DNA of 64,000 bases from contig OZ237759.1 in assembly GCA_965178125.1 (NCBI GenBank), forward strand, positions 186,001-250,000, in the 5' to 3' direction. Shown one piece after another: positions 3,374 to 59,603 of this stretch. A program made the translations under genes and the position numbers. The notes below the pieces were generated by a model. The model saw only the letters and a program-made list of their open reading frames with translations. It ran no database searches and was not told where the DNA came from. Position 1 is the first letter of the stretch; each line of letters begins with the position of its first letter. The stretch is from Bilabrum cf. latius. Its lineage: Eukaryota.

Positions 3374-4693
3374 ATGGACTCTTTAGAGCATACATCAACG
3401 CATGGCAGCTCAAGTGGTGCAATCGATCCAGCTGACGGCGTTGTTCGGAGTGTGCTGGAAGCCAGGAACGGCGGGGCCGGAACGACCGAAGAGCGTATAG
3501 CGGCGGCTGGAGGTGCCCATTTCTACCATTACAATTGCTCAGGAGAATGTGATGAGGGATGGGGATGCTGCTACCGCGCATGCTAGTCCATGCTGCACGG
3601 AGCGAAAGGGAGCGTGCTGTCGATCAAAAACATTCAAAAACTCCTTGCGAGCGCCCCAGAAGCAGCTTCACGAGGCTGGAGTCAAGATTCCGTTGGAAGC
3701 ACGAAATGGATGGAGCCACCAGACGTAGCTATTGTGTTGCGGCTCCGTGGCCTTCCCCCTGGCACCGAAATGCTCGAATGGGACGCCAAGCTGCCTGCAG
3801 CCAACGATCCAATGGGCAAACGCGCCGCTGGCCAGCTATCGAGCGCACTAGAAACCGTATCAAGCAACCTGTGGCAAGTGCTGTGGTCAGACGAGAAAGA
3901 AAAGTCGGGTAGGCCAGTTGATGCCAAGGAGTCTGGTGTGGTTGCGCCAGCGGTGATCGATGACGGGACATTCGCATACACGGTGGCTGCCATTCGCGAG
4001 CGGCCCCCGTCGGCTGGACCCTCTCCCCGCTGCAGAGGCAGCCCGCTTCAGGCTCTCGCCGGCATGCTGCCAGCGGGCGGGATTGGTCGCACCCGGTGGG
4101 GCCCAGATCTCCATGCACTGGCACTGGCAGTCGGGAAGGAGGACCCCGACCCCGAGCTGGCCAAGAGGCTGGACCGCCTTGGCCGCACGGAGATCCTTGT
4201 CTTGGACACCCATTACACGAAGCGAGTGGACGCAGGCGCTTTCGATCCCCCAGAGAGCCGTGCAGGGCCGGGGCTTGAGTCAGCCGCGGGGCCAATGGGG
4301 GGGGCTGCTGCGAGCGACTTGAAGGGCGACTGCGGCTCAGCGAGCAAGGCGATTACCAGTGGTGTCGACCCGAGCGTGGCTCATTGGGAGCAAATAACCC
4401 CCGAAATAGAGGGCGGTAGGAGTGGGGCTGTCGCCGCCACTGGGGAGGCGGCTGCGGGTGGGGCGAGTGGGGGCACGCCAGTGGTGGAGGCAGAGGTAGG
4501 CGAGGGCAAGTCGACGGGCGAAGAGGCAGAGGAAGCGCCTGGCACGCCCGCCCCGAAAGCAAATGTGTCAATTCTGGGCCAGCAGGGAGTATCCTGGGTC
4601 TCCCTACCCGCTTTCCTGAGCAGGAGCAGGTCATCTCGGTGGATGGGCGCGGGTCTTCGGAGAACTGCCGCAGGAGCAGGGGCTTCATCATGA
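3374..4693 (+). CDS. Ufm1-specific protease (peptidase C78, UFSP-like)
   Basis: HFYHY..DEGWGCCYRAC[TAG 3584]SML matches the family YHY..D.GWGCxYRxxQ catalytic-Cys motif. ILVLDTHYT corresponds to the LILDPHY Asp/His motif. ORFs 3374..3586 and 3590..4693 are in frame. Ends TGA. Confidence 0.85.
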
Positions 4694-9875: not shown

Positions 9876-9949
9876 TGAGCTCCGATCGCCATGTGAGGCA
9901 TTTTAGGTGGGCGGCCACAGTGGGCCGGTAAATCGTCCATCAGCGCAAA

Positions 9950-11942: not shown

Positions 11943-14900
11943 TCACCCCAGCGGGAAGTGACAGCCCGCGGCCTGCGAGGCATACACCCACGCTATCCCC
12001 TCACCCCCCACATTGGGGTCAGCTGCAGCGGCTGGCGCTCCCAAGGCCCCGCCCACACCCCTAGGTCTACCAAGCTGCAGGGCCCCCACCCCCACACCCG
12101 CCCGCGCCCCCAGCCCTCCATCCAACCTCCGGCCCACCGCAACACCAACACCAGCTCCAGCCCCGGCACCTGCACGCGTCCTCTGCGGTCGTGCCTTGGA
12201 AACATGTTCGCCGCCCCTGCGAGCCCCGCCCCCCACGTTGGGGTCAAACGCCTCGATCCCCTCGATGAGGAACCGCGACACGAGCCTCCTGCGGCCGTGC
12301 GCCGCCCTCTGCTTCCAGCTCTGCATGCACCGCCGCAGGAGTGACAGCCTCGAAGACCGCTGCACCTTGGCCTCCAGCAACAGGGCTCTCTTGGCAGCCA
12401 GCTCCCTCTCCCTCCAGCTGCGAATGCCCGCCTGCACCCCAGCGAACTCCTGCGCAGTGAGGGCGAGGGTGCCCCTCGCGCCCCTGCCGCGCACTGCAAG
12501 CACACTGCCAGCCGCTGACCGTCCAGGGAACAAACCCCCTGAGCCGCTCCTGTCGCCCCCCAAGCCCAGGCTTACCCCGGAGTCCACCGTGCCCCCGTTC
12601 ATGCCCCCGATTCCTTCGGCCAAGGTCCATCCCCCCGTCCTGGTGCTCAGGCTAGAGGCCCTGGCCCCTGGGGCTAGCGGCCTCCTGGCTCGACCATCGA
12701 TGGCGTCGCCCACCTGAGCAGACCGGGGGCGGGGAGCCAGGGGGTCTCGTCCTCTGCCCCTCGGAGCGGATCGGCTGCGCTGGCTAGGCCCTCCCTGGCT
12801 TGGCCCTCGCTGGCTAGGCCCTCGCTGGCTAGACCATCGCGCGGCAGATGCCCTTCTTTGCCGGACCCTGGCTTCATGCACCGTCGCGGACGAGCCGCGA
12901 GCGAACAGGTTCGATCCAGTTTCTGTGCCATCCATGCCCCCGTCCTTGCCAACCTGCTCGATGCCCACGCCCACGGTCACTGTCACGGGCAAGGGCCGGA
13001 ACTCGAAGGAGGGTCCGCCTCGGTGCACGCGACGGGCCGCATCCACAGCAGGAGAACCTCGCCCCGCATCATCGTGCAGTGCACCCAGGGCCCTTACACG
13101 GCCCCCGATCGAGGACTCCCACGGCGCTGCCTCCTTCACATGCCCCTGCACAGCCGCCCCCCTGGCCGTCGTGGATCCACCGGTCTGTCCTCGGGCCATC
13201 GCAGCAGCGTCGTCCACCGAGTGCAGTCCGATCTCATCCTCCTGCTGCATGCCCCCATAGGCCCCCGCCAGCGCTCTGACGGCAGCAGCGGCACGAGAGG
13301 TCTCATCCGCCCTGCGCATCGCTCTCTCAACCGCCTCGCGGCGCGCCCGCTGGCCCTCGCCCTCGGCAGCACCGTCCACCTCTCCTCTCACTGTGTGCTA
13401 CATGCGAGCCAAGCCCCGCCGCAGCCTGGCTCCCCGCCCCTGCAGATGCTGGGCCGCGTCATCGCGCGAGTCCGTCTCCCCGCGAATCGTCGTGCGCCCG
13501 CTGGACAGCTGCCGCCGCCGAAACTCAACGGCTAGTTGCTACCTCCTTCTCTGCAGAGCCTCAATCTCGGCCACTGCGCGCCAAGTGCGCAGAGGCCCGA
13601 GGCAGCGCCTCCTGCGGGCCATGCGGCGAGCCCTGTGAAGCAGCACCCAGGCACGGAGCACATGCCGCCCCATTCGGGTCTCCCCTCGCTGCACCGCATG
13701 CTCTTCCACGGATTTTCTGCGGTCAGCAGCCTGTGACGCGGCCTATTTCCAAGCTCGGAATGCGGATCTGCAAGTGCGCAGTGCATCCCAAGCGGCTGCG
13801 GCCTGCTCCGCGAGGTCAGGGGCAGGGGCAGGACCGGGAGCAAGACCGGAGCTGCGACTCCCTTGGTCGTCCGGCTCCGTGCCTGGGCCATACCTGCCGG
13901 GATCGGGACCGCTGGTGCTCCCCCACGGATTGTGCTCGATGCTACCACTAGTAGGAGCAAAGCCCCGCGGGTCTGTGCCCTCGCCCGGCTCTCCATAGCC
14001 CCGTTGACCGTGCTGGGCAGAGGTCTTGCCCGCATCGCCAACATCGCCTGCATCGCCGCCGCTCTCCTCAACCCAGCTGCCCGGCCGAGTCGGGGGTGCA
14101 CTCCCTCTGCCGCTCTTTCCGCCGGCAAATCGGGAGCCGCGGCTGGCTGCATGCCCTGCACCTGGTCGTGCTTCGTCACCCGGGGCAGCTGGGAACTAAC
14201 CGCTGCTGCCGCTGCCGCTGCTGTCGCCCACCCCTCCTTGAGTCAGTGCTCTTCGCATCGGGGCCGCCACTCCGCTGTGCCCAGCTCTCGAGCGGATGGA
14301 ACCAGTCCCTTTGGCACCGGGTCTCAGTGCGGCCGTCACGCCACCCGCCGATATGACCGACACGGACTCGATGGAAACAGCGGACCGGTTGCTGTCACCG
14401 ACACCCCCGTGCCTCGACCGAGACCGCATCGAACCGCCAGAGAGAGACACGTTCAGCTCCGACTCGGCCTCTTCATCGATGGACTGCAGCCGCGACCGGA
14501 AGCTCCGTGCCGCACGCTGCCTGCCTGACCACTGCATATGCGCCACGCTGCCCCTGGCGCTGCCCATGGATCGAGCCGAGGCTGAGTGGCCTTTGCGCGC
14601 GCCCCACCCCAGACTTGCTGCTCCCACCTCACGGCTTGTCCCACTATGCTCTTCATGTCCAGATCCACTCTCTGGTGCTTTTCCAAACTGGCCATGACCC
14701 GGCCCGCCCTCATCCGACATTCCGGTGCTGGATCGCGGGCGCCCCCTCCACGCACCTAGCCCCGCGGTCTAGTGTCCGAACCCAGACGCACTGCTCCCAC
14801 CCATCTCCATATCTATCGTGGCACTGCTCGGTGCCCTTCCGAGCGGATTTCCAGGAGATGCACCCAGCCGGAAGCTCATACCGCTGCTGGCACGAATCAT

Positions 14901-17900
14901 GCGGCCCCGCACAAGAGCAGACTGGGGTACTGCAGCAGCAGCAGCGGCAGTGCCAGCTGCGCCCGCGCTGCTACCCGCCGTCGACCGGAAGCTGTGCCTC
15001 CCCACCCGCGCACCGCCACCCATGCGCCCCATGCTCCTGCCCCCCATGCTGCGTGCATGCAGCGGAGGCCTGCTGGCACCATGCCCGCGAGGAGGCCCAC
15101 GCATGCTCTTGGCTCCATGGACTAGCACCCCGGCTGCATTCTGGCGTGTGCTGCTGGCACGCTCTCTTTGTCCTCGCCCTCCCATGGACTCCGCCGAGCT
15201 ACCCTCGCTCCCCGACTCTTCGACCACCTCCAGCTCGTCCACCCAGGGCCCGAGCGACGTAGCCCCCGAGCCTTGGGATCCAGCTCCAGGGCCCGCAAAA
15301 CTGACCGACCTCGCCGCGTGAAATCCGCTCCGAATCCGCTGTAGGGCTCCTATGAGCGTGGCAGCTGAGGGCATGCGCCGGATGCCGGGGCCTGCCGATC
15401 CCGGTCCCGACCTGGACCCCGACCCGGCCCCTTCCTGCATGGCTCGTCCTTCGTTTTCCTTCCCGCCATCCGGCACATCCTCTACGCCGCTGCCCCCGCT
15501 CCCGCCCCCGATGGATCCCATCACCCGGCGACACGCCTCCATCCCCACGGCCGTGCGGCGCTCCCACTCCGACGAGGCTCCGTCCGCCGCGGCGGCAAAC
15601 CACGCCCGGAGCACCTTCCGGAGCTTGGCATGCCGACCTCCCCTTCGCACCGCTGCGTGCCGCTGCAGCGCATGCAGAGCTCTGAGCATCGGACGCTCCT
15701 CCCCAAAGTGACGCCGGAACAGCTCGATCTTGGCCTGCCTCTGCCTTGTCCTCACCGCCCACACCCGCAGAGCCCTCGCCGCTCGCCCCCTGCGCCTCGC
15801 CTCTCCCACCTTGCGAGTCGCTACGGCTAGTCTCCAGTCCCGCACGGCCCCGAGCAATGCCCACGCCCTGTGGTAGGCCCCTGCAGTCTCCTCCAGCGCA
15901 CTTGCCCTCCCCCTCTCGCGCTCCTCCGCCGCCCATCTCCGCCACCGCGACAGCACTGCATGCGCCAACTCCACCGATCGATCCGCCGCTCGCCCCTGCT
16001 CCTCGAGCCAAAGCCTCGACCTACCCGCCCACCCTTCCAGCACCCGTTTCAGCAGCAACCGCTTCCGAAGCTTGGATCGCCAGGCCGCCACGCACTGCCC
16101 CGCGACCCTGCCCTTGCCGATCGTAAATGCCGCCTCGCCCGCCCGACGGAGCGCGATCGTGCGCTGCACACGCTGCCTCCACCGTGCCACAGCGGCCGCC
16201 GCCCTCGCTGCACCCGACTACTGCCCCACGGCTTCTCGCAGCTGACGAGTGGCCGCCCTCCCAGCGGCCCATTCCTTCCATCGCCTCACAGCGGGCTTGC
16301 AGTGGTGCTTGGTGAACACCCGCCTGGCCCTGGCCCATGCTGCCCTCCTGTACCCCTCGGCGTTCACGCGCATGCGTCGCAGCGCCCAGACTCCCAGCAA
16401 CATGTGCCTCGTGTGTTCCCTGGCTGCACGCACGGCTGTCCTGATCCTCCTCTTGTACCACCGCAGAAGGGAGAACGACCGCCGCAGCGCCACCAGTCGG
16501 TTCGTGCGGCCCATGCGACGGGCCAGCCGACGCACCTCCACGACCTGTCGCAGACCCTTGAAGGCTCGCTGCGAGGCGTCTCGCTCTTCGGCCGCCCTGG
16601 CTAGCACTGCAATGGGATGCAGCTAGTCAATGGCGCACACCTGCCTCAGTCTCCGCACCAGTGCGGCTCTCTCTCCCGACACTGGGCCCATGGTCTGTGT
16701 GAGGCCGAGCAGGGAGGCCCAGTCACGCGACTCACCCGGAGGATGCTGGATAGAGACATGCGACTCGTTGGCATCTAAATCCCTATCCTCAACCATGCCA
16801 GCCTCCACTTCTCCGCCTCCGATTCCGGCGGAGAGCACCACCCGCGCCTGCTCCCTCCACGCTGCCTCCACGGCCCGCCCGCCTGCAAGCATGGCTGCCC
16901 CCATTCGACCAAGGGGAAAACCACCCCCAAAGCGGTGGACTCGCACCACAGCGGGAAGCTAAGGAACACATGTACCGCGCTCATCTCCAGACCAGGACAC
17001 ACTGCTGCCACCAACCTCCACATCATGCCCCTCCAACACCCTGAGCACCCTTGCCGCTGCCCCCTGCAGCGAGCCCCCCGCCACGTTCTAGCCCCACGTG
17101 TCGAAGCCCATGGCGCCTGGCGATGCATCTTCCAATCTAGCTCCCCGCTGCCTGGTGGCTTCCATCCCTTGCACCACTGCCTCGAGGCCGAAGCACTCCA
17201 CCAGAACTCTGTGCCACCTGGGGTGCACCCCCCGCACGAGTCCCCACCGCCGGGCCCTGGTACCCCGCACCCGTCCCGACAGCCAGAAGGACCGCCACCG
17301 AGACACCCCGGTGCCGCCCGCAGGACCCGCTGCATAGTCCTCGGGCAGACCCAGCGCGGCTCTCACGCACCGCCGCCCGCGCAGGGATGGAGGGGGAGCG
17401 CCCGTCTGCAAGAGGCCCGTGTCACTGCCTGACGCCTGCAAGCTGCGGGCTCTGCCCGTAGGGTCCCGCCGCGGTGCTGCCGCTACGGCCCACTGCATCC
17501 ATAGCGTGGTGCTTCGTTCCTCTTCCTCGTCTTTGTCTCCGGTGAGAGTGGCAGCGGCTGCGCACATCTGCCGCAGTCGTGCATCGAACCATGGCCCAGC
17601 GGTAGCGAGTGCAGCCCGGGCCCCGCGCTGTGCTCTGTCCTGCGCGTGCCCCACGGCGTGCTGCCGGGGCACGTATGGGGTCAACCCCATGCTCAGCCGC
17701 GCACGCAGCGCAGCCTGCCGTTGCGACCAGTCCAGAGACACGTCGAGCGCAGCCGTCACGGTGCTCATCAGCCGCCCGGCGACTCCCGCGCCCTTGAGGG
17801 CCCACAGTGACCTCTCGCCCCGGGCGAGCAGCTGATGCGCCTGCCGCACCAAGTCCGCGCACTCGGCGCGCAAGCCAGTGTGTCGGAGAGATAGGCATGC

Positions 17901-20900
17901 TGAGTGAGAGTGGGGCGCACGGGGCATGCGTTTTCGCCGTCCCATGGCCCTGCCGGCATGCTTGTCCAGTGTGGAGAACAGGGACACCATCTCGCCCTCG
18001 CTCTGCGTGCTGCCGCGGGTGCGAGTGACGAGCCGTGGTTCTGCTGCATCCTCCGCCTGCTGGCTATCTGTTGCTTCTGCTCCTGAAGACATGCCGAGCT
18101 CCACCTCCGAGCCTGCCGCCGTTGCTGCATCATCTGAAGAGGATGCTCCCTTGCCGACATCCGTGCCTGCCCCCCCTTCCGCTCCATGCTCCTCACTACC
18201 CAGGCCCACAGAGCCCCCGAGCGCCTCGCTCGGGTCAGACAGTTGCGCTACAAGCACCGGTGGAGACCTGCTTGAGGTCGGGCCAACCCGCCTGCCTAGC
18301 CGAGCCGCGATCATCCCGCTTCGTGCGGCTGCTGCCTTCCATCCCATGAAGCACCTGGCTCTCACAAACCCGTCGCGCCACATGGTGGCGGACCTGCAGG
18401 CGACTCGAGCAGCCTTGCGAGCCAGCAGCACCGCCCTGAGGCCCCGCAGCGCGCGTCCGAGCACTAGCCTCCGCCCCGATACCGCCGCCAGCATCTCGTA
18501 CCTCTGCGCCCGGCGTGAGGCCATGCTGTCCTGGTGCCAGGCGCGGACTACCATGCCCGCGAGAGACACGATTGCGGCTGCCTGCAGCTGGTTGGCTGCC
18601 GCCACTTTCGCGCGACGCACCACAACGCCGTGCGCCATCACGCACATCGCCGCTGCCTGGGTCAAGGCCGACCGCAGCCGACTGGCAGCCACAGCGCCCC
18701 GCAGTGCGATGCACCTGACCTGCGCCTCCCCAGCCAGCGCAAACAAACAGGCCCTCTGCCTGCACGCGGCATCGAGAGAGGCCAGCATCGCCGCCCGGAA
18801 CCGTGTGCCCTGCCACACGGCCACAGGCCCAGCATGACGAGCCGCAGCAGCGATGCCGTCTGCGCCTTCGCCGCTCGAGCAAGGGAGCGCAGCTGCTGCC
18901 ACCTCGGCCTGCTGCTGCCTCGCGGACGCTGCCATTCGATCGGAATCATGCCTCACACGGGCCCTGGCTGCATCTGCAATGGCAAATTTAACGTGAGTGG
19001 ACATGGGTGGGACCTAATTGCCCGCACCGTGTTGGTCACGCAACGAGGAGAGGACCGCCTGGGGAGCGCGGGCTCGACCAGCGAGAAAAGGCGACCCGAG
19101 CCCTTGTGGCGGTTTGCTGGAGCCGCTCTGCAGGTCGCTACCAGTGCCAGCGCCCCAGCTCCGCATGTGCGCGGCCACGGGGGCCAACGCCACCTGGACC
19201 GCATCGGGTGGGCTGGACCACGCGGCGGAAGGCAGCGCCTGGCCGTACCCAGCGATGGCATCGCCCCAGGGAGAGGCGGGTGCAGCTGCCCCTGCATGCA
19301 TGAGCGGCTGTGAAGCATCCCTCTTGGCAGCATCCAGCACCTCTTGCTCCCTGCCGTCGTGCGGTGCAACCGTACGAGCCTACGCAATAGAACTGTCCTC
19401 GGGTGGATCCAATGCCTGGGTCTGCGCACGTAGGCTGCGGAACAGCCGGCCCAGGGCATCCCCAGAGACAGGCCCTTGGGCACCATTGGGGCTAGCGGAG
19501 CCGTCCTCAATCCTACCACCACCTGCGCCAGGCGGCCCATCGCCGTCAGCCGGCAGATCCGACCCGCCTGCATGCCCGGTTCCGTGCCCCTGTGCCTGCA
19601 AGCGCCGTTCCTGCGCCGCTGCCACCCTCGCCACCCTCGATTGCTCCCTGCGCAAGGCGGCTTTGGCCTACTAGCCCCGCCTCCAGGCAGCTAGTGCAGA
19701 CCGACGGGCACCCATCCGGACCACCCGAGCGGCATCCCTCATCCAATGCAGCGCAGCTCCTCTAGCGTGTCGGCGGATAGCAGCGACAGCCACGATGCGG
19801 ACAGCCGACGCGAACGCGCCTGGATTCGGCAGCTACAATCTGGTTGAGGTAGCACCGACATGGGTGCTCACTGCAAGCACCACAGCATGGAAGGCGTATG
19901 CCAAGCCCGCCGCGCAGCGCTGCTGCCACCAGACCGTGCACGGGTTGACATCCGACGCGGGATGAAAAGTGGATTCGGTTGACAGCAGGTGCGCCCACGC
20001 TCGATCCACGGTGTCGCAGCATTGCTGGTGTTGTCGTGACGAAGGCCGTCTGTCCGGACCCCCAGGAGCCACGACGCCCCTACAGCGCAGCCTCTTTGCC
20101 AGCCAAGCTTCCAGCTGTGCCCTGCCATCGTGCGCTCGCAGCAGCGAGCGAATACTTGGCGACGAGGCAGCGCGCCGAACCACATCACTGAACGACCCGC
20201 GAGCCGGTAGGATGGGCTCGCTGGGACTTATAGCCATATCCTGTGCACCGGTGGCGGATGCTACCGCCTTCGCGAGAAGCCTGTTGCACGCCGATGCGCA
20301 CCGGCGGGAGGACAGCTGACTCAAGTGCGGGATAGCCTCGAGCAAGTCAGAAGCGGTGACGGCTGAAGTGGTCCGTAGTGCGCTAGAGAGCGTCGTGTAG
20401 GGTTGATCTCCCGCCTGTGTCGCCCTCAGCATCCTGGACGCAGCAGTGCTCTCCTCCCTGGACGGAGTGCAGGCCTCGAGCACTGCTTCACTCGACGAGG
20501 GCAGGCCCCGGCTCAGGCCAGCGCACAGCTCTCTCCGCCCGTGTGCGCGGGTCTCTCCACCCTGGCCAAGCAGCGCGGGCAGAGCCACTGGCCGCCCGGA
20601 GGTGTGCCGACGAGGTCTTGAGGGCTGGCTGGTCACAGTCCCTAGTCTGTGGGCATTCCTGGCCAGTAGGCTAGCGGGATGTCCTGCTGCGGATCGCTAC
20701 GAGGGTGGCACCGGTGCAGCAGGTCTCTCCGCTTGAGCCCGTGCCCAGCCATCTCGAGTGCTGCCGCGCGGCCATGACTTCCTCCTTCCCTTCCCTCGTG
20801 GGCGGCTGCTACCCGCACCCGCGCCCTGCAGCCGCTCCCCATCGCTGGATGTAGGTGCCAACAAAGACCGGCGAGTACCCCAGCTCGCGCCTTCATTTCC

Positions 20901-22259
20901 ACCGTGCGTAGGTCTCTCCGACAGACTAGCACGCCGAGCATGGCTCGGGCCGCTCATACCCCCTGGAAGGTCCACCCCCTCCACTCCGCTGTGCCCCTCC
21001 TATCCAAGAGTGTTGGCGGCATCTTGTCGGCCGGATGAAGCGATTTCCCCCCTCCTTCGATTGCTGCCCTGCCTTCGAGTGCTGGCACCGACAGATCTAG
21101 ATCTCCGCCCGAAATCACGCCCACTTGCCCCTGCAGCGCTCCACCTTGCATCTGCTGCTCCGCGACCTGCTTTCCTCTTGCCCGCGCGAGCGCCTTTGCC
21201 CTATCCTGTACGTGTGCCCTTGTCAGCGCCACCACAGCCACTGGCCTGACCACCCTTTGCCCGATCCATTTCGGACACACCTACCTGCATCCCCAGTGCA
21301 GTGCACCTGGCCTCCCACCCCGCCCTCCTGCGGCCGGCTGCTCGGCTGATCCGGGCGACGTATCCTGCCGGCAGCCTGCTGTCGTCAGCAGTTGCACTCG
21401 GGCCCTCTGCTTCTCCTTCTCCTTCTCCTTCTCCTCGAGCCTGGCCCACGCCTGGACCATGTTCGCTCTCAGCTGCACCCTCAGTTCCACCACTGCTGCT
21501 GCCAGCCCCGCTTCCTCTAGTCCCTGGTAGAGGCAGCCACGCGGCCCATGCTCGCCTGGCACTCCGCGGACTGCCTGCCCTGCCTTGGGCCATCCCCGGC
21601 TGGCGCTGCATCGAGTGGCGGCGCAAGCCCTCTGGTCCACTTGAATCCAATGAATCTGCGAGCCGACGCATCGGTTTGGACGGCTCAGCCACCGGGTAAT
21701 CAGGAGCGGCAGAAGGACCCCAGGGGGCTGGCTTGCCTTGACTGGGTTGAGCTTGCTGTGGCAGGGTACCCTTCCATCGGAGTCTCTGCGCCTGCTCGCC
21801 CGTAGGGGCATGAAGTGGGGCGTGCCGCCGACCGTCTCCAAGAGGCGTATCGAAAGCAGCATCAGCGAGCATCTGCTCCCTACGGCTCGCGGGGCGGCAT
21901 TGCGAAGTGTCTCTTGCTGGCTCGATGTGACCGGAGGGCTGCGCCAAGGCTTCAATCCCTGGCTATATGACTGATGGCGTTAGTCTACGCCAGCCAGTCG
22001 GCGGCTGCAGCGGGGTGATTGGGGATAGGACCATATCGTCGCCCCCCGCAGCAGCAGCATGCGCTCTTGTGCTTTCGCCAGCATCAGTTCGGTGAACAGA
22101 GCCCGCATCAGAGGTTCCCGAATCGCTTGGATTACTAATTTCGTTGGCATCAACGGACTAACCGTCAATACTATCCACTGATACTTCGTCGAGAAATGCC
22201 TCCAATGTTGCGCCAGTATCAGGCTATCCAAGGCCTAGAACCGGAAATCCTGCGCTCAT
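11943..22259 (-). CDS. Giant Sfi1-like (centrin-binding repeat) protein, ~3438 aa, apparently intronless
   Basis: Eleven track ORFs share one minus-strand frame. The junctions checked are TAG only (~20, including tandem TAG TAG at 19668-19673). ATG at 22259 after AAA, TGA at 11943. Many Arg-rich ..L..W repeats (CRSAFRAWK, VLRAWF, CVAAWR, CFMGWK, LRRCMQSWK). Confidence 0.7.
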
Positions 22260-22477
22260 TTTCGGCAAATGGGATATATTAACAACACTAACAATGCAAA
22301 TTATTCAACACGCGTCTACATCATTGGCCTACACGTGATGTTTCACCGCTTTTATTCGAATCGGGAGCAACGGCAAGTGAGCTGAGCTGGTTCCGGTTAT
22401 TGTAGACAACGCATTTGGGGTGTCATTAATGAGCCCCAAAGCCCCTCATTCACCCGTTGATGCAATTAAGCATGCCA

Positions 22478-27479: not shown

Positions 27480-29186
27480 ATGATACATGGCACGGATCAT
27501 GCAATTTTGATACTTCGAACGATCCGCCGCTCAATCGTCGGAGCTCTTGCCGACTTGAGCGGGACTGTGCATGTCGATTCGAAGCTTGTTGGGGGCTCTC
27601 AGAACGCGATCCGATGCATTGCACGGCATAAACTACCGGTGCACTTTTTAAGTAATACGTCAAAGGCGCCAGCCTCGGCTATAGTCAGCTAGCTGAGATC
27701 ATGCGGTCTCTCGGGCATGTCTACCACCAGCGTAACAACCTCACTGACTGCAACAAAACGCTTGATAGAAGCAGAGAAGCATAGGGCACTACTGCTTTTA
27801 AGCGATTCTGCATTCACAGAATTTGAGGATATCGAGGGGTGCGTATTGGCTCCAAAGTCTGGCCAGGAGGCTCCGTCAGACGGGGACCTTGCGAACCTAT
27901 CAGCAGTGGTTGTTGGCCTTGCGCCGGACCGGTTGCACTACACCGCACTAGATGCTGCCATGCGGGTACTGATTGGATGCGACAGCAACTCGTCTCCAAC
28001 GGCAACGCGCCCAGCCCGTAAGCTGTACGCCTGCCACACAGGCACCCACCAGCGCGGGGCAGACGGCTCCCTACACTTGGGCCCCGGCCCGTTCGTGCGC
28101 GCCCTGGCAGAAGCAGCGGAGGCTGCCGGCTGGGGCAGACGAGAAGGCGAGTGTATTGAGGACAATCTCCATGTAGTGGGCAAGCCGTCTCTGGCTTTCT
28201 TTCAGGCCGCTGTGGCCAGGCTAGGCGATCAGTAGTCGGTGGCCAGGTTAGGCGATCTGTAGTCGATGGCAGACGGAGACGGAGGTTGCACCGGCACCGG
28301 GGCACGCGATAGGGCTCCTTGGTCGGATCCCCGGGATGGCGCCAGGGACAAAAGTGATACATCCACGCATACAAGTGGAAGGCAAGAGGCGAAGGAGAAG
28401 GAGAAACGTCAGGGCGGGACGTAGGCCGAGGAGGAGGAGGGTGGAGTAGCTGCAAAGCGGAGCACTAGTCATGAATCAAACTCTTCTTCTGCAGGAGGCA
28501 AGGGGTATGCAGCGACTGTGGGTGCTTCGATGGTTCCGGGCCCTGCCTCTGTCCCCGTGGATGCAGCACCAGCTGTGGCGCCCCTGCCGCACGTGATGAT
28601 GATCGGCGACGATGTGCGGCAGGACGTGCTGGGGGCAGTGGAGCATTCGGGTGCGTTGCGGTGGCGAAGTGGCGGCGCTGATGAGTCCGGTAGCGGGAGC
28701 AGCTGTGGCTCTGCCCTCGGCATGGTGGGGGTGCTCGTGCGAACTGGCAAGTACCGAGGCAGGGCAGGCGGTGAGGATGTGCTGGTGGAGGAGGCCAAGA
28801 GGAGGGCGAGAGAAGGGAAGCACTGGTGGCCTGTGCTGTCCCTGCGGTGGAGGGGCTCGGGCGTGGGAGAGCCTGGTGTGGGAAAGCATGGTGTGGGGGG
28901 TCCTGGTGCGGGGGAGGACGAGCTAGCGGCAGGTGCAGGTGCATGCAATGGACTTGCAACCGAGGCGAAATCAAGCGCAGATGCTGCCAGTGGGAGTGGG
29001 AGTGGGAGTGGGAGTGGGAGTGGGAGTGGGAGTGGGAGTGGGAGTGGGAGTGATGCAGGTTCCGCTGGTGCTCGCCCGATCCAGATTTCAGCTGAGGTGC
29101 TTGTCGAGGGACCTGCAGATTGGAGGCATGGGGCGTTGGTGGTGGCTGATAGCTTTGAATAGGCGGCACTAGCTCTGGTGTAGTGA
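27480..29186 (+). CDS. HAD-superfamily IIA phosphatase (HDHD2/LHPP-like) with low-complexity insertions
   Basis: Motif I ADLSGTVHV, FLSNTSK, VVVGLAP, LGPGPFVRAL, VVGKP, MIGDDVRQDV and VLVRTGKYR lie in one frame across TAG 27690, 28233, 28260, 28422, 29160 and 29181. Ends TGA. Start codon uncertain. Confidence 0.85.
28212..28265 (+). repeat. 27-bp tandem duplication inside the HAD CDS
   Basis: gtggccaggctaggcgatcagtagtcg / gtggccaggttaggcgatctgtagtcg; each copy carries an in-frame TAG. Confidence 0.9.
28989..29051 (+). repeat. (AGTGGG)10 microsatellite encoding a Ser-Gly linker
   Basis: Perfect hexamer run within the HAD reading frame. Confidence 0.95.
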
Positions 29187-29350: not shown

Positions 29351-32300
29351 ATGGCATCGCTATCCCCAGAGCACTATGTATTTCACTACATTATCGCTGG
29401 GATGGCTCTCCTTACTCTTGTGCTGTCGCTGGTAGACCGTTTTATGGACCCTACCGCAACCACCGACTCTCCTCGCATAAACCTTGGACCAGTTTGGTAC
29501 TGCATATCTGGAGTGCTATTTGCGTATTCATTGTTTTCATTGTGTGGTGCGTTTGGATGGAAGAGCGATTAGATAAGGCTCTTTCTGATAGCGTCATCGG
29601 TTGCGAACGCTGCTGTGAGCACGTGATATACTGCATACAAATTACTCCCCCAGAATTGCTTGTTAACAATGAGCGCCCCATTATGGTAATTTGATTGACT
29701 TTTATTTGCGCAGGCCTTTTCATCGCTCGTGCACCTTGCAGCTGGGGCATCTTCGAGCCGAATAATCTTTGGAGAGCCAAGCCTAGCGTAGCAATGGCTG
29801 TACAGCGCTGCATCCGTCATGAGCATCGGAAATGAGATAACTATCGCATTTAATTGCAGGAGGCGCAGATTACTCGGTATGTTGCTCGCTGGGCTGGGGT
29901 TGTGGGCGATACCGCTTATTTAGGCATATCCAGTCCATCCGTCCTTTGATGTGTTGATGATAGTAGCTCCATGCATAGCATTCCCCATGTCGACTGTATA
30001 TCTCCTTTTGGAAGCATTCAGGGATTATTTGTAGTGGGTGGATGAGGCCTTGGACCCGTACATGTCGTGGACATTTGAGACTGGCTGCTGTCGAAGCCGC
30101 ACCCCTACACGCGTGGCTCCGAATGTGGCGAACTTGAACTCACCACCAGGGGGCATCGCAGTCTAGCGGGATACAACCAGCAACGGTGATCACCCTCGTG
30201 ATGGTACCACCCGCCAGAAGGATGCTCCCGCCGCTACTCGGCGGCCCAAGGAGGCAACCGAGCTGGACGCGGATCCGCCAATGGCACCAGTCGGCCTGCC
30301 TCACTTCTTGCTTGCCCTTGGAATATTGTTTGGAACGATATACACGTATTCGTTCCATGCACCGAGGTCATTCGGTGTATCTTTTGCAGTGACCGAGTAC
30401 ATCTGCGTGGTATCGGCTGCCCTGTTCGTGATCTCAAGAGGCGCGCTGGCTCTGACAGTGCTGCGCAACGACGTGATGACCGTCTCTATGCAGGCAGCTG
30501 AGTCGCAGAAATGGAAGCGAGAAGCCGCCGATGCCCGCCTCAGCACCATCCAGCAGTTCACCAGGTACATCTTCCACGAGGCCCGGGTGCCTCTTCAGGC
30601 GGTGTCTCTGTCGGTGCAGGAGCTGCGGGAGAGCCTGAAGGAGATCCGCGAGCACGACAGAAAGATGCAGAGGGCGCTGCAGGCCACCTAGCAGCTAGTC
30701 CACCGCGAATTTGGGACGGACCCTGGAGCAAGCAGGGGCGCGGCTGGGCTCCTGGCGCGGCTGGCTGAGCTGGTCTAGCTGCGCGGAGAACTGGGTGGCA
30801 GCTTGCACGACGCCAAGGACGTGCTGATGTCCTAGCAGCAGGGGTGCAAGGGGCTGCAGTGCATCTTCGATGACGTGCTCGAGGCCCATCGCATTGAGCA
30901 GGGCAGGCTCAAGCTGAGACAGGAGACCGTGCAGATGGCGCACGTGCTCGCCGACGTCGAATCCACGTTCCGTCGCACAGCAGTGAGGAATGGGCTGTAG
31001 CTGGATACTAGCATCGCGGACGATGTCCCTATGGCGATTAGAGGAGACTCTGTCCGGATCGGCCAGGTCCTGTCCAACATGATCTCCAACGCGCTCAAGT
31101 TCACCCCGACCGGCGGACGTGTGCACGTGCACGTGGTGGCTTCAGGCCTCAGGGCTGCTGATTGGCGTGGACACCCAAGCGTGGAGTACGGCAAGGAAGG
31201 AGACGAGGCGGTGGAGTACGTCGGCTTAGCCATTCGCGTGCAAGATACCGGGTGTGGGATCTCCCAGGCTGATTTGGCCCAGCTATTCACGCCCTACAAG
31301 CAGGCCAGGCACGGCGAAAAGTACACGGGGTCCTCCTCCGGCCTGGGTCTGTACATATCTCGCGGGATCGCTCGTCAGATGGGGGGTGACCTGAGAGGCT
31401 ACAGCGAAGGCGAAGGGAGAGGCAGCACGTTCCTCTTCGAGTTCGAGTCATAGGTGCTGCCAAAAGCGTCCAGCGGGAGCGGGTCGGGATCTGGTGCACT
31501 AGACACAGGGATGAGGCAAATGACCTTGATATCAGCCGCAGGATCGGTGGCCCCAGCGACTGAAGAGGAGGATGCTGCGGACGAGCGGCAGCACTCCCAC
31601 CTTGAGCTGCAGCCCATCTCGGAATCAGTCGAGGTCCGATCCTCGGCGGGAATGGCGTCATCGCTCGAGTCTCACTAGGACCAACATCAGGACGATGAGC
31701 GCGTGCATCGGCAAGATGGCACGTCTCCCTCAATGCGTCCCTTGCCAACCTCGCACGATGAATAGGGAAGCACATAGCCGGGCAGCATGGAAGAACGCAG
31801 TCGCAGTCAGTACCAAACCCCGAAACCAGGCTAGACGAGGAGTCAGCTCCGCCGAGTGCGAGGCCGGGGCCGGGTCAGCTAGGAGCGGGAGGCTGCTCAT
31901 GCCGAACAACATGTCGCAGTGGCAGCAGAGTCGCGACTTACCACTGCGCGGGGCGGTGTGACTGCTGGTTCGCTGGATGTCGGCGATGGCTTGCGCGGCA
32001 GCACGGCAGCAGCAGCCAGCTCGAAATCCAGGATGCGTTCCGGCCAGCATACCATGTCACCACCTCTGCATGAAAGGACACTGCCATCGGTGCACAGTGA
32101 TCCACACTCCAACCAAGCAGCCGATGCCGCTGTGGATAAAGGTGAATCCACTCGCGTGGACGCTGTGCGAGCTCGAGGTGAACGGGATCGTACATTGGAC
32201 AAAGTACGGGCTGACCCCAACAGACCGACGGGCAGACACAGCGACGAGGCCCGGCCTGAAGCCAGGATGGCGGCTGGTACTACTGGGGCTGCATCGGCGG

Positions 32301-32737
32301 CTTGTGCTGGCTCTGGTGGCGATGCTCCTCGCCGCGACGCCGATGCACTCAAGCAGTGGTGCCTCGTCGTGGACGATGTGGGCGTCAACCGTAAACTGCT
32401 TGCCAGGGGAATGCGAAGGCTGGGCTATGCAGTGCACCAGGCAAAAGACGGGAGCGTGGCGGTGGAAGCATGCCGGGCACGCGCCGCCGATGCTGGGCCT
32501 GGCGTTCCTTGCCTCGGTCTCATCACGATGGACAAGTCGATGCCCGTGATGGACGGCGTGGAGGCGACACTTGCGATCCGAGAAGAGTTTGGAACTCGGT
32601 TTGTGATTGTGGGGCTTACCGGGGATGCTTTGGGTGAGGACCTCGTATCGTTCAAGGCAGCCGGGCTGGACGATGTGCTGAGCAAGCCGTCCAGCGCCAA
32701 GGACATGGATAGGGCAGCCCGTGCGTGCGTGCCGTGA
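29351..32737 (+). CDS. Hybrid histidine kinase (multi-TM rhodopsin-like sensor + HisKA + HATPase_c + receiver), ~1095 aa; intron 29615..29713
   Basis: H-box IFHEARVPL, N-box QVLSNMISNALKFT, G1 VQDTGCGI, G2 SSGLGLYIS and receiver VVDD..MDKSMPVMDG..LTG..SKP. One frame across 15 TAGs after removing a GTGAGC...GCGCAG 99-nt intron. About 8 hydrophobic N-terminal segments. Ends TGA. Confidence 0.88.
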
Positions 32738-47137: not shown

Positions 47138-48613
47138 ATGTCGGCACTTGTTCGCAGGTATCGTCGAAATAAGGTGCTGGGATTGGCACCACTGACGCTG
47201 CTGGGTTTGATCATATTCCTGCCAGCGCTTGCGCTTGGCGGGACGGACTTCTACAGGGTCCTCGGTATCCAGCGCGGTGCGAATGATAATCAAATTAAGA
47301 GAGCGTACCGAAAGCAGGCACTGAAATGGCACCCTGATAAGCACCCGGACAATGAATAGAAAGCGACGGAAAGATTCGAGAAAGTCGCAAAGGCGTACGA
47401 GGTTTTGTCAGACCCAGAGAAGCGAAGAATCTACGACCAGGTTGGTGAAGAAGGCCTCGATGGAAATGGTGACCCTCACGGTGGTGGGCCTCCCGGATCC
47501 GGGGGAGGCGGTCCAGGCTTTGGTGGGCAAGGTGGGCCCGGTGGTGGTCCTGGCATGCACTTCTCCTTCTCGGGTGGACCGGGTGTCAACTTTGGGGCCT
47601 CTGCGTTTGACATGTTCGAGAGGATGTTTGGGCAGCGTGGCGCGGGCGGCGGCTTGTTTGGTGGGATGGGCATGGGTGGTGGTGGTGGTGGTGGCGGCCG
47701 TGGCGGCCCTCGGGGTGGTCGGGGCCGAAACCGTGGTCCGCCGCCGCCTCTGTTCCCCAAGGGATCCGCAGTGCATCAGCTGAGCGCCGCGGGCATGAAA
47801 AAGGTCGGGAGAACGGGACGGGGCCGCACTGTCTGGCTGCTCGCGTTCCTGGACGGCAACGACCGGGGGCAGGGGCAGGGCGGCTCTCGGGAGGTCGCCG
47901 GGGCCCTGGACAAAGCGGCAGATGCGCTGCAGGGGGCCGCTAGGGTGGGTGTCGTGGATTGCGCGCGGCACGGGAAGGTGTGCCAGGCCCAGGGGATCCA
48001 AGAGGTCCCGCACATTAAGGTGCTGGGGCCAGACCGAGCAGAGGAACACAGAGGCAACCCAGCCTCCGCGAAGAGGCTGAGAGACGCGGCCGTGAATGCG
48101 CTGCAGGAGGCGGAGAACAGTTTTCGGGTTAGGGTATCCGGGGCGGGGCAGGCGCAACTCAGGGGCCTCAAGCGGCGGTGCGCCCGGTCTGCTAGTGGCT
48201 GCGGGCTGCTCCTATCCTCCTCGCAGCAGCCCAGCGCTCGCCTCCTTGCCCTAGCCGGGGCCCTGCGGGACCGAGAGGATATGGAGGGTGTGGCGAGTGG
48301 GCTGGACCTGTACCTGGTGAGCCTGCCGAGGGACAGCCCGGAGGCTTGCCGCGAGGTGGACAGGGCCCTGGGGCTGCCCAACGGAACCGCAGCTGGCGCC
48401 GCGCAAGGGCCCGCTGTGCTCACGCATGTCAGTGGTGAAGACGGTTCATCTGCCTCGGTTCACAGTTAGGACAAGGGAGGACGGGGAGGCGCGCAGGGCA
48501 GCCACGCTGGTGGAAAGGGGTCTTCGAAGTCGGAAACCTCTGCATGGACGATGTAGAACAGCATGGCCCGGTTCTTGGTCTAGCAAGCGGCTCGCCGAAG
48601 GGGTGCAAGGTAA
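47138..48613 (+). CDS. ER-type DnaJ protein (signal peptide, J domain, G/F-rich region, thioredoxin-like domain), 491 aa
   Basis: [28 protein letters not shown][TAG 47357][26 protein letters not shown] is an intact J domain only with readthrough. Trx-like VWLLAF..VGVVDC..C..P. Further TAGs at 48467, 48554 and 48581. Ends TAA. Confidence 0.9.
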
Positions 48614-48780: not shown

Positions 48781-51700
48781 CCGGCGCCGTGAAAGGTCGG
48801 ATTTGGCCGACCGACCGGTATCGCCGATATCGGTACCTTCAATTCACCTTACCGATTCTCGCGTACCATTCAAGTAATCCTAAAATAATATCAAGATATT
48901 GAAAATTGTATAAGTTAACTATCGACTGCGAGTGTTACTCATTGATAAACTTGCGACAATAGTATACTTGGTGGTCATGAAACCAAACGCTCGATTTTCA
49001 GGAAGGGCTACTTTGATACTGCAGAAGTTTGTCCAAGCAGGCATGCTTGCAAAATAAACAAGCTTTTTTGAATTAATCGGTGGTTATATTATATATAAGT
49101 CTTAGCGCAAAAAAGTTACCGAACGGTTTACAAGATATTGAATCGAATGTGGACCTGCCATGAATTACGTGCTTCGTGACCCGATTCTTGTGCATCTATC
49201 TACTTGGCATTTATATCAACTTAATCTACATCACAGCCAAATCATGTTTCCAGATGATACAGAGATTCTTTACAATCCCCACAAATGAACTTGCAGCAGC
49301 GTGAACACACTTTGTAGGAAGAAACCGACTAATGATGCTGCCGCTTGCTGCATCTGGAGCCCTTGCACTTGGCGCTGCACCCCCCTCGACGGCTCTTTGA
49401 TCGTCCGCTACTGAGAAAATTAATCAGTCCTGCTTGTAACTACTCCTTTCCAATCAAATGGAGCGAGCCCAGCAGCGTAGCTACCACGTGCTGCTTTCTA
49501 CATCCAAGGTTCCCGGGGGTCGCCTCCGCACGCATCCCAGCTGAGGTTGCAGCACCGCGAGTTCCTGCACGTGCATGTCGGTAAGGACGCATCAATTCGT
49601 CATACAACAGCTGCACAAACATACCACGAGCCTGTCGATGCCGCACCATGTGCTAAACCTGTTCCTGAACGGATTTGCTGCTAGCTCCAGCAGCTTGCCG
49701 ACGAGTGGGTCCGTGGCGTAGCAGTCGACGTGCCTCCAAGTTGACCCAGATGATGTACGTATTGACGATAACTTGCTCCATTAAACCTTCCCACACTCTT
49801 AAGTATGCCCTAGTCTCTCCCTGGAATGAATTTGTTAGCGAAAGTTGCGTCCGGAACTTGTCAGCTAGATCCACACCCCCCATGTACTTGTTGTAGAGGA
49901 CGGACACGAGGGGCGCGTTCACCACACTCAGGTCGCCACCATCTCTCCGTAGCGTCTTTACCAAGCAAACAAAGTACTTCGTAGGAATGTTAGAAGCCAT
50001 AAGAAATGGTTCGCGGTCACAGTATCCAAAAACTTGCATCCCATAAGCTGAATCATCTGGCGAGTCAAAGGCTACTGTCTGGCCAGGGCTCAACAGGCCC
50101 CGACTGCCAAGGTCCTCTTCGGCCAGCAGCGATCCCGCAGGAAGCTCACTCGCATCAAAAACATCACCAGCTGTTACATTACATAAAGATACTTTGCTGG
50201 GCCCAAGAAGAGCGCGCTTCACAGTATGCCCGCGTTCGCCTGGGGTTCGTCTGTTCAGCTAGCCAATCGCGTGGTACAGCTCACCGCTCACTTTGCCTTG
50301 GCGAAGCGTGCCAACAACCCGAAGGCCTTTGCTGGTGGCCCAATCACACAGTGGAGCCGATGTAAAGTAGTTATCCACCGCTAGGAGGCCCCCGTTCAAG
50401 TTTTTGCCCATTGCCTTCGACGCAACAGCTGCTGTTTGCAGGTCCATCCGGGTCAGCTACCCGGCAGCGGTGCCGCTGCCGGTTGCTACCTTATACGAGT
50501 ACTCAGTCTTCCCTCTGTACTATCGTGTATCATCGGCAACAGATGTTGCTAGATCCAAATGGTACACATACCCGTCTTTTCGTGCAGCTGCCCATAGCTT
50601 AAAGCCATGCGATGTGGGCTTGTTCGGCATGATGACACATGCCCGATTTCGGCCGTACGCCATCACCATCATCTCATCGACGGCGATGCTCTTTGGGCTC
50701 AAAGTAGCGGCACGAAAGTACTCTGAAACTGCATCTAGCATGCCTGGTGGATATTCTATGAGTACCCGCTCGCGAGGACTGCCCACACTCCCTAGCCTCA
50801 TTGTGGCGCGCTCCTCCGCCAGCAGGGGTGCCGGAGCCTCCTGCAACCTCCCGGCGAAAGACAAGTTTCGATGGAACCGATTCCAGTCTTGCACTACGAT
50901 ATCGTCTTTCATGCGCACCAGGAACTACTTTGATTGCAGCAATTCTAAAGGTATCCGGGGTCGAATGAGAGACCGAGTCAATACCACGGCCAGGAACATC
51001 ATGGCAACTGGCATGTCCATTGGTTGGTCGCTGCCGGCTGGCCGGCTGCCTGGCCAGCTACCTCTGCCGCTGCAGTGCCTCGCCACGAAAATGCAATATC
51101 GAGAGGCACCAGCGAGCACAGAATGCGTATTGGAGATATTGGTTGTTCATGATGAGCCGTCATCCAGCCTTTGACATACTCAGTAGCAGCCACATGAGTA
51201 GCCGCTGTGCGAGCGATCGGGATCCCATCACCGCCAATCACAACCCGGTCATTCAAGAAGTACCTATATTCAGGCTCATCAACCAACGATGCAATTTTGT
51301 CCATAGGAAACATACTTTCATATTGCTCTATTCTGCGCCGCTTTGCTTGGTGAGCCTACTGCCTCCTACGATGCTGCACCGGAGGCCGGCTCAAAGTTGC
51401 AGACCGACTGGATACCGGCTCGTCCTCGTCTGAATCGCCGACATAGTCCATCTCATCATCGCTGGCCTATGCTTCGCCCAACAAATCACGTAAATCATCA
51501 TCTTTTGTCGATTTATTTGCATTGTCCTCTTGCCGTTTACGCTTGGACCCAGCGCGTCGGCTCGAACTGGCCGCATGGGACGGGCTGCTTCTTGACTACT
51601 TGCTAGCAACCGAAACGCTAGATATAGGTTTACAAGACTCCAATGAGAATTTTGGGATTGACTGAGATGCTTCTGCGAAGGCTAAGCACAAATAAGCGAT

Positions 51701-58078: not shown

Positions 58079-59603
58079 TCAGCTCTGGTTCTTGAAGAGC
58101 GCCGACACGCTCTCCCTTGCGCTGATCCTCTCGATGGCGTGCGCCAGCAGCGGCGCCACGTTAAGCTGCCTGATCTTGCCGCAGGTCTTGGCGTGCGCGG
58201 GCAGCGGGATGGTGTTCACCGTGACGACCTCCTCCAGCACCGAGTCCTTGATCCGATCCACGGCGGGGCCAGAGAGCAGCCCGTGGGAGGCGAAGGCGTA
58301 CACCCTCCTGGCCCCGTTGTCCTTGATGTGCTTGGCGGCCTTGCACAGGGTACCCGCCGTGTCGATCATGTCGTCCACGATGATGCAGTCAGCGCCCTCC
58401 ACCACGCCCACGAGGTCCATGCGCGCGATTGAGTTGGCCTTGGCCCTCTGCTTGATGATCATCGCGAGACCAGTAGAGTCAGTGTCCGTGGCCTTGTTGA
58501 GACCCTCTCGGAACCTCTTGGCCCTGTACACGCCTCCCGCATCGGGCGACACCACCACCACGTTCTGGAGGTCCTTGATCCCGGCGAAGTACTCCACGCC
58601 CACCTGGCCCGCCTCCAGGTTGTCCACGGGCACACGGGGTCCGAAGAAGCCCTGGATCTGGCCGCAGTGAAGGTCCACCGCCACCACGCGGTCCACGCCG
58701 ATCGCCTCGAGCAGGCGAGCAATGTCGGCCGCGCTGATCGGGACACGGGACTGCATCTTCCTGTCCTGGCGGGCGTAGCCGTAGTACGGGATCACGCACG
58801 TGATGTTTTCCGCCGAAGCGCGGCGCATGGTCGACACCATGAGGAGGAGCTCCATGAGGTTTTCGTTCACCGGGGTGCAAGTCGGCTGCACGATGTACAC
58901 ATCCTTACCACGGACATTCTCGTTCACCTGTGCGAACCAATCCAACATATTACAAGGCATTGCATGTTGATTCATGGTCGACGTAGCAAGTTTAGAGCAT
59001 AGTGCCGCAGGGGTTAGGGGTTGCGTTGGATCAGTGGCGGCAACACAATAATTGCAGTTTAAGCCATGTAATGCTTACCTATACATTGACTTCTCCGTCC
59101 ATGAATCGCCCGACGGTGATATCGCCTAGTTTCTGCAGCTGAATGGTGCCAAGGTGCGATGCAATTCCTCGTGGCAGCGGCAAGCAAGAACTCGAGCTTT
59201 TGGCAGAGACCAGGGGCAGCATACGGACCAAAAGGCGCGAATAAGTTAACATGACTTCAAGTTTCTGTTTTCAAGATCTCACAGTGCCGAGGTGCTTCGC
59301 AATGTCTGCCGCTAAATCAAGGTTGGCGTTCCCACTGAAAATTCGAATGGTCTCAGAACCATTCCGTGCTGGGCTGGCAGCACGAATGGTACCATGGCCT
59401 ACCACTGGCTCTTCCCTGGCTTCACTAGCCTCACACTAGACTGGAGACCCCCAAATGCCTGCTGCGAGCCCTAGTCCTGCACCAGCAACTGCGGCAGCCG
59501 ACACGGCACGAGTACCAGCTCCCATCGTACCAGCACGAGATGCCATTCCGCCGAATGACCAAACAGATCTTGATGTCAACTTTCGCATTGCCCTGGCGAA
59601 CAT
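58079..59603 (-). CDS. PRPS: Ribose-phosphate pyrophosphokinase (PRPP synthetase); exons 59603-59283, 59132-59079, 58927-58079
   Basis: IFSGNANLDLA|KLGDITVGRFMDGEVNV[TAG]|VNENVRGKDVYIVQ, PYYGYARQDRK, VDLHCGQIQGFF, VSPDAGG, IVDDMIDTAGT. Canonical introns; TAG also at 59436. Ends TGA. Confidence 0.95.

Follow-up and report, generated by a model that had tools for sequence, protein, structure and literature searches.

In-frame TAG codons in a PRPP synthetase gene and its surroundings point to a nuclear code with UAG as a sense codon, most likely for glutamine

The PRPP synthetase gene and its transcript-like contigs

Here we analyzed a gene for PRPP synthetase (PRPS) that carries TAG codons within its reading frame. 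The gene lies on the minus strand of a 64,000-nucleotide stretch of the Bilabrum cf. latius contig OZ237759.1 (positions 186,001 to 250,000), referred to below as the window, and the codon of interest occupies 59079..59081. Taken together, the evidence points to a nuclear genetic code that uses UAG as sense and keeps UAA and UGA as stops, with the PRPS TAG as a normal codon most likely read as glutamine (Gln). We place the probability of this reading at roughly 0.78.

Exon 1 of the gene (59283..59603, minus strand, as are all features of this gene) begins at an ATG at 59603 and spans 107 codons, encoding an N-terminal extension and then the start of the enzyme. Its limits are supported by transcript-like contigs, which extend to 59626 and 59611 and in which 59283 is joined to 59132, and it is gapless against homologues. 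A first in-frame TAG (59436..59438) is found at codon 56, within the poorly conserved extension. Exon 1 is followed by intron 1 (59133..59282; 150 nt, GTGAGA...CTGCAG) and by exon 2 (59079..59132), whose 18 codons comprise KLGDITVGRFMDGEVNV plus the TAG studied here. This second TAG is the closing codon of exon 2 and abuts the GTAAGC donor (59078..59073) of intron 2 (58928..59078; 151 nt), an arrangement that the original prediction had described and that our reading of the sequence bears out. Intron 2 ends in CACAG (58932..58928), and exon 3 (58079..58927, 282 codons) starts with GTG AAC GAG at 58927 and closes with a TGA stop at 58081..58079. The full coding sequence has 408 codons including the TGA, with no TAA or TGA within its 407 codons and two in-frame TAGs. 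The gene had been said to carry no other lesion, which overlooked the TAG at 59438..59436.

Exon 3 (58082-58927) matches the Pfam families Pribosyltran_N (1.1e-35, 122.4 bits), Pribosyl_synth (8e-30, 104.6 bits), and Pribosyltran (2.3e-14, 53.4 bits), all above their thresholds. The same three domains are common to the class I ribose-phosphate pyrophosphokinases, with solved structures 7xmu, 1dkr, and 3dah, to which the window PRPS aligns without gaps; it differs from this family in its 70-residue N-terminal extension and its two TAG codons. A homologue search returned 120 matches, of which P0001, the window's own fragment, was left out. The spliced product, GRFMDGEVNV-TAG-VNENVRG, had been predicted to fit the family gaplessly, and PRPS indeed aligns gaplessly through the TAG with the remaining 119 homologues, with exon 3 showing 71-78% identity to these eukaryotic proteins. 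P0001 itself is a 298-residue public "protein" of this species that begins at an ATG within intron 2 and spans only exon 3.

Eight public sequencing runs contain at least half of the sampled words of the stretch, and four of these (X1, X6, X7, and X8) were aligned to the PRPS stretch. The contig from X1, a DNA-like run, is colinear with the window and has the same sequence. X6, X7, and X8, which come from two or three studies, each gave one contig that omits exactly 58928-59078 and 59133-59282, both with GT..AG ends. These three contigs read ...GTC AAT GTA TAG GTG AAC GAG..., with the TAG in frame and no other difference from the window, and they also retain the TAG at 59438..59436, where there is no joint. 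These contigs extend from 59626 or 59611 to 57859 or 57834, and that of X8 from 59527 to the edge of the aligned stretch; their first ATG is that at 59603, upstream of the first TAG, and a 3' untranslated region is present beyond the PRPS TGA. We read them as transcripts because both introns are removed exactly and because their depth is unlike that of neighboring contigs (in X8, 343 for the spliced contig versus 60 for its neighbor).

RNA sequencing across both introns had been named as a check, and in all three transcript-like contigs the introns are absent and the TAG is retained. Use of another splice site that would remove the TAG was not seen; in particular, no form with the upstream GTATAG donor, 6 nt 5' of GTAAGC, is present among the spliced contigs of X6-X8. 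Since no base differs between the spliced contigs and the DNA, there is no editing. There is also no in-frame ATG from the TAG at codon 56 up to the conserved enzyme start, so that production of the full enzyme requires both TAGs to be read. PRPS is thus an intact, expressed coding sequence in which the TAG is retained.

The final 36 nt of intron 1 share the reading frame of exon 2 and encode IASHLGTIQLQ; at 59145-59165, the sequence agrees at 16 of 21 bases with the terminal part of exon 1 (59283-59303, encoding IAKHLGT). The segment looks like either a local duplication of that terminal part or the remnant of an alternative exon.

TAG across the window and in a relative

When TAG is taken as sense, the longest stop-free frame in the window grows from 905 to 3453 codons; taking TAA as sense changes little. 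The 3453-codon frame (11946..22304, minus strand) contains 20 in-frame TAGs and neither TAA nor TGA, versus 37 and 52 TGAs in the two other frames. Across 19 long frames (approximately 18,900 codons) there are 101 in-frame TAGs versus about 559 CAG and 145 CAA codons, and the two off-frames contain 125 and 95 TAG, 247 and 285 TGA, and 37 and 51 TAA. Because the 19 frames were delimited by TAA and TGA, their zero counts for these two codons hold by construction, and the weight rests on the frame lengths. Sixteen of the frames terminate in TGA and three in TAA. UGA and UAA still end genes here, with the evidence for TAA thin, as TAA is rare in GC-rich DNA and its status as a stop rests on few cases. 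Leaky read-through cannot yield a protein from a frame holding as many as 20 TAGs, and TAG must be decoded efficiently. We therefore regard it as almost certain that TAG is a sense codon in this genome.

Pfam searches place TAGs within or between domains, in a single frame, in six further genes. In IFT122, the segment joining the two zinc ribbons holds three TAGs. A UFSP-type cysteine protease (Peptidase_C78) has a TAG at 3584..3586 (plus strand), five residues past its GWGC cysteine box, and an HDHD2/LHPP-like HAD phosphatase has one at 27690..27692 (plus) within its Hydrolase_6 domain. The frame of a hybrid histidine kinase (29699..32734, plus) includes 14 in-frame TAGs, and the segment that separates the His box from the receiver domain holds ten of these. 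A DnaJ/thioredoxin-like gene has a TAG within the J domain (47357..47359, plus) and further TAGs at 48467-48469, 48554-48556, and 48581-48583. The sixth is a piggyBac-like transposase, considered below.

Some of these frames have features of their own. The HAD frame contains a tandem duplication, VARLGDQ-TAG-S / VARLGDL-TAG-S, with TAGs at 28233-28235 and 28260-28262 (plus); since each copy carries one, the TAG is older than the duplication. The piggyBac-type frame (DDE_Tnp_1_7; 49245-51146, minus) has seven in-frame TAGs and no TAA or TGA, and the element is either long resident under this code or decaying. The protein of the 3453-codon frame is rich in Ala, Arg, and Gly, with many loosely repeated tryptophan-containing segments, and Pfam gave no match to it. 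Among 90 further small frames Pfam found only a GDSL lipase, which lacks TAG; NCBIfam on ten frames found only the HAD family, and a PDB search with the frame at 9932-11677 gave no match. A self-BLAST of the window yielded only three short repeat pairs, which left no paralogue pairs for a comparison between TAG and other codons.

Exon 3 served as the query for a metagenome scan, which gave 80 loci. The closest, L001, has 94.7% protein identity and 80.6% DNA identity to the window in exon 3. It is syntenic, with the C-terminus of the same upstream gene adjoining; its introns lie at the same two positions, and its exon 1 also has 107 codons and can be aligned with that of the window without gaps. 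Exon 2 of L001 encodes TLGDITVGRFMDGEVNV, which matches the window at 16 of 17 residues; CAA comes next, and GTGAGT after it. The codon homologous to the window TAG at 59079-59081 is therefore CAA (Gln), again the last of its exon. That the TAG closes its exon has no special meaning: splice donors usually lie in an ...AG|GT context, and L001 has CAA|GT here. At the position of the first window TAG (59436..59438), L001 has Ala (GCT). The intron at the place of window intron 1 lacks the IASHLGT-like copy in L001. L002, L003, and L004 (76-77% identity) have CAG, CAG, and CAA at the PRPS TAG column, with no intron there. The motif was present in 58 of the 80 loci, where the column holds Met (22), Val (14), Arg (9), Gln (7), Asp (2), Thr (2), Ala (1), and Ser (1).

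On the opposite strand of L001 (2470-3513, minus) is an orthologue of the window DnaJ/thioredoxin-like gene with ten in-frame TAGs, so that the relative shares the code. Six of these TAGs belong to an in-frame (GGATAG)6 microsatellite, which gives six Gly-TAG pairs. In L001 this gene lies directly beside PRPS in convergent orientation, whereas the window copy (47138-48610, plus) is about 10 kb away, which indicates a rearrangement of the region. Among the other loci, the 28 of at least 3 kb (L002-L079) showed no clear gain in frame length with TAG as sense. For two of the fetched loci, L051 (70% PRPS identity) and L076 (65%), the frame grew from 471 to 888 and from 336 to 848 codons, respectively; this could be chance or could signify further TAG-sense lineages.

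Standard gene callers would cut most long genes of this genome at TAG, and P0001 is an example of such truncation under the standard code.

The amino acid at TAG

The UFSP TAG is a stronger single site for Gln than the PRPS TAG. A full HMMER search with the UFSP query, carrying X at the TAG, found 54 proteins at E <= 0.001, and 52 of the 53 homologues that cover the column have Gln there (44 by exact motif and 8 by phmmer alignment). The exception, P0273, shows Gly at the alignment edge, and P0243 does not cover the column. As the query carried X, the result is not circular. Mouse UfSP1 (2z84) also has Gln at this column. Another homologue search with the UFSP segment returned 356 candidates, none significant, and the full HMMER search was used instead.

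We also read TAG as each of the 20 residues in turn and compared the Pfam bit scores, following the logic of Codetta. For UFSP, Gln scored 43.5, followed by Ser (41.8), Cys (41.7), Leu (40.2), Ala (39.5), and Glu (38.4). The HAD domain gave Lys 48.0, Gln 47.8, His 47.6, Arg 47.3, Ser 46.3, and Ala 45.8; with TIGR01458 the same TAG gave Arg 52.5, Gln 52.0, Lys 51.6, Ser 50.0, and Ala 49.8, and the solved HDHD2/LHPP relatives have Arg, Arg, and Gln at this column. The three TAGs scored in the piggyBac domain gave Asn 35.0, Gln 34.5, and 33.7 for both Ser and Ala. The DnaJ and HATPase_c columns were flat (spreads of 1.3 and 0.5 bits). Summed over the five domains above threshold, Gln led with 303.8 bits, ahead of Ser (299.8), Lys (298.8), Met (298.3), Glu (297.3), Leu and Ala (296.9 each), and Tyr (293.8). 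A SPATA20-like frame was also compared with PDB; its TAG was paired with Lys in a segment scoring -2.9 bits, and it was not used.

A further comparison considered the residues within three positions of each codon, with one codon held out at a time (101 TAG sites, 300 resamples). With each of the six Ser codons held out in turn, Ser fell to rank 8 or below in only 24 of 1800 resamples. The corresponding counts for Ala were 0, 0, and 3 of 300 resamples with GCA, GCT, and GCG, and 158 of 300 with GCC. For Gln they were 284 of 300 with CAA and 300 of 300 with CAG. For TAG, Gln ranked 7th (-13.2 bits), Ser 8th (-14.4), and Ala 9th (-17.7). By its neighbors, then, TAG appears unlike a Ser codon and behaves like the Gln codons.

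Several observations weigh against the Gln reading or the data beneath it, and some come from the PRPS site itself. The codon had been called the conserved Gln of PRPP synthetase and was said to identify Gln on its own. The orthologue alignment upheld the gapless fit and not the conservation, as the column is variable across the 119 homologues (Met 55, Gln 25, Val 24, Ile 4, Ala 3, Arg 3, Ser 2, Lys 1, His 1, and one gap; no Leu, Glu, or Tyr). Five solved-structure alignments have Glu (3dah), Gln (7xmu, 6asv, and 4s2u; E. coli-type), and Asn (1dkr), and the family motif invoked in the original prediction is in effect the E. coli sequence. A hidden Markov model built from the 119 homologues gives Met 646.2, Gln 646.1, Glu 645.2, Ser 645.1, and Leu 644.3 for the TAG column, placing Gln only 0.9 to 1.8 bits over Glu, Tyr, and Leu, with Met 0.1 bit above Gln. 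A quick maximum-likelihood tree was built after masking the column; in it, the nearest clade to the window (three sequences, support 0.87) has Ser (Cafeteria), Ala, and Ala; the next clade adds two Gln, and a clade of 26 has Gln in 17. Elsewhere, the UFSP Pfam model favors Gln over Ser by just 1.7 bits. The HisKA column of the histidine kinase prefers Ile (24.2), Leu and Val (23.3 each), and also Met to Gln (19.5), by up to 4.7 bits; this match is below the Pfam threshold and ends at profile position 54-55 of 66, its alignment probably runs into an insert, and with HisKA included in the sum Gln is still 1.4 bits ahead of Ser. As for the transcript-like contigs, the RNA label of X6-X8 is a guess only, and one of them (X8) was flagged "probably DNA".

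A further disagreement comes from window/L001 pairs in orthologous stretches of 46-51% identity, which belong to the DnaJ/thioredoxin-like gene, to exon 1 of PRPS, and to the C-terminal end of the upstream gene. The partners of eight TAGs are Asn, Ala, Ala, Ala, Gln, Ser, Ala, and Ser (codons AAC, GCC, GCC, GCA, CAA, TCA, GCT, and TCC). Canonical Gln codons in the same stretches pair with Gln (8), Glu (6), Arg (4), Thr (3), Lys (2), Met, Gly, and Ala (1 each). The empirical likelihood of the TAG pairs is best for Ala (-25.4 bits), then Ser (-26.5) and Thr (-27.4), versus -36.1 for Gln. This result is in real tension with Gln. It is softened by the small sample, by the high share of Ala among residues (14%), and by the likelihood that a new codon sits at unconstrained positions. 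At that share, four or more Ala in eight would arise by chance with a probability of about 2% (binomial estimate), and once the conserved PRPS pair is added, Gln makes up two of nine partners versus a 4% background.

Weighing these results, we consider it likely that TAG encodes Gln, because of the UFSP column, PRPS through L001, the HAD column, and the neighbor statistics, with the fact that known UAG reassignments are mostly to Gln also taken into account. The original assignment of Gln thus stands as the most likely one, carried by the L001 CAA, the UFSP column, and the Pfam sum. The PRPS site is informative only through its close relative, as L001 has CAA there; this TAG is one instance of the code and an entry point to it, not the decisive site. 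As a lesson of method, a site that seems conserved from a bacterial motif can mislead, and the column needs to be checked in the closest relatives.

Serine is one of two unlikely alternatives between which we see little to choose. A tRNA-Ser with a CUA anticodon would be easy to charge, because seryl-tRNA synthetase recognizes its tRNAs without the anticodon. Ser takes second place in the five-domain sum, it accounts for two of the eight weak partners and fits their profile better than Gln, and it stands at the PRPS column in Cafeteria; the green alga Scotinosphaera offers a precedent with the same stop-codon pattern (PMC8271138). But Ser occurs in none of the 53 UFSP homologues, L001 has CAA at the PRPS codon, and the HAD column prefers Gln over Ser by 1.5 to 2.0 bits. 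Neighboring residues recognize held-out Ser codons as Ser and do not recognize TAG as such, and the best protein matches of the window are not green algal.

Alanine, or another small residue, is just as unlikely. Ala provides four of the eight weak partners, three of them in robust equal-length alignments, with the best likelihood of any residue; it is found in two of the three nearest neighbors in the PRPS tree, and the held-out codon GCC behaves like TAG in the neighbor comparison, which thus leaves room for Ala. Against this stand the abundance of Ala noted above, its absence from the UFSP column in 53 homologues with motif spacing respected, and its deficit to Gln in the UFSP, HAD, and summed Pfam scores. 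L001 has CAA rather than an Ala codon at the PRPS site, and three of the four held-out Ala codons are recognized as Ala by their neighbors whereas TAG is not. We know of no precedent for a nuclear code where a stop has become Ala.

Another residue (Thr, Glu, Leu, Tyr, Lys, or others) or ambiguous decoding, as sense plus stop or as a mixture of residues, is somewhat less probable again. UAG encodes Leu and Glu in other lineages (PMC11687900), and Thr is third in the weak-pair likelihood. Yet the Pfam sum puts Gln 6.0 to 10.0 bits ahead of Glu, Leu, Tyr, and Thr, the PRPS column is free of Leu, Glu, and Tyr in all 119 homologues, the UFSP column is nearly all Gln, and frames with up to 20 TAGs exclude inefficient read-through. 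Least probable, and largely refuted, is that TAG is untranslated, through a pseudogene or truncated gene, another splice form, an assembly error, or RNA editing: the standard code does read TAG as a stop and a GTATAG donor lies just upstream, but the three transcript-like contigs use GTAAGC, keep the TAG, and match the DNA, the DNA-like run has the same sequence, 407 codons pass without TAA or TGA, exon 3 is 94.7% identical to that of the relative, and in-frame TAGs occur throughout the window. The GTATAG donor, ruled out by these contigs, would also remove two aligned residues.

Host lineage, decoding, and comparison with known UAG codes

The window has a GC content of 52-71%, spliceosomal introns, and Ala- and Gly-rich proteins, and the IFT122 gene indicates that the organism has flagella. 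Its best named matches are to stramenopiles, with Cafeteria roenbergensis first (73% identity for PRPS and 64% for a DDX47-type helicase), and no green algae are found among the named PRPS homologue matches; an ESM Atlas search with calreticulin yielded no taxon of use. By these sequence matches, the organism appears to be a stramenopile-like, GC-rich, intron-bearing, flagellated eukaryote. By analogy with known codes, Gln decoding would involve a tRNA with a CUA anticodon charged with Gln, most simply a mutated tRNA-Gln, and an eRF1 that would no longer recognize UAG. ARAGORN found no tRNA genes in the 64-kb window, Rfam gave no matches at its gathering threshold, and the eRF1 gene does not lie within the window.

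No nuclear UAG reassignment in a stramenopile or a Cafeteria relative was found in the full-text literature searched, outside of which lie most subscription journals and supplements. We tentatively propose, at a little under even odds, that this is an independently evolved and unpublished UAG-sense nuclear code in a GC-rich stramenopile-like lineage, present in at least two species (that of the window and L001) and the group's first nuclear stop reassignment, in which the residue could also be Ala or Ser. If true, Ala would be an unprecedented meaning. Few independent cases are known, and a UAG-only reassignment in a lineage other than the ciliates, fornicates, rhizarians, and green algae would be a further one; its occurrence at 52-71% GC bears on models that link stop-codon capture to base composition. 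The differences at TAG positions between the window species and L001 make this pair suited to tracing how a new sense codon spreads.

Most of the nuclear UAG reassignments known so far are to Gln, and Leu, Ser, and Glu are represented by one or a few cases each (PMC11687900 and PMC8271138). In PMC11687900, a code in which UAG alone becomes Gln and UAA is kept as a stop (the pattern of NCBI table 15) is described for Iotanema spirale (Fornicata), Protocruzia tuzeti, and two phyllopharyngean ciliate lineages; PMC5304391 is a further source for this code. The window resembles this type in that UAG is sense, UAA and UGA end frames, and Gln is the most likely residue, but its best matches are to stramenopiles, its GC content is high, and the residue is inferred here from sequence. 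In Scotinosphaera sp. (Ulvophyceae), TAG encodes Ser and both TAA and TGA are stops, according to PMC8271138. The stop-codon pattern is the same as in the window, where Ser ranks second, although the strongest conserved sites of the window point to Gln, its neighbor statistics are not Ser-like, and its matches are not green algal.

An uncultured rhizarian from Lygus hesperus and a phyllopharyngean ciliate read UAG as Leu (PMC11687900). UAG alone is reassigned there as in the window, in which, however, Leu falls 6.9 bits below Gln in the Pfam sum and is absent from both the 119 PRPS homologues and the UFSP column. Codes in which both UAA and UAG (UAR) encode Gln occur in many ciliates, in Dasycladales, Trentepohliales and Cladophorales, in hexamitid diplomonads, and in Streblomastix and Amoeboaphelidium, presumably through mutated tRNA-Gln (PMC11687900 and PMC2984419). 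These share the change from stop to Gln with our reading of the window, but TAA is absent from its 3453-codon frame and ends three of its 19 long frames.

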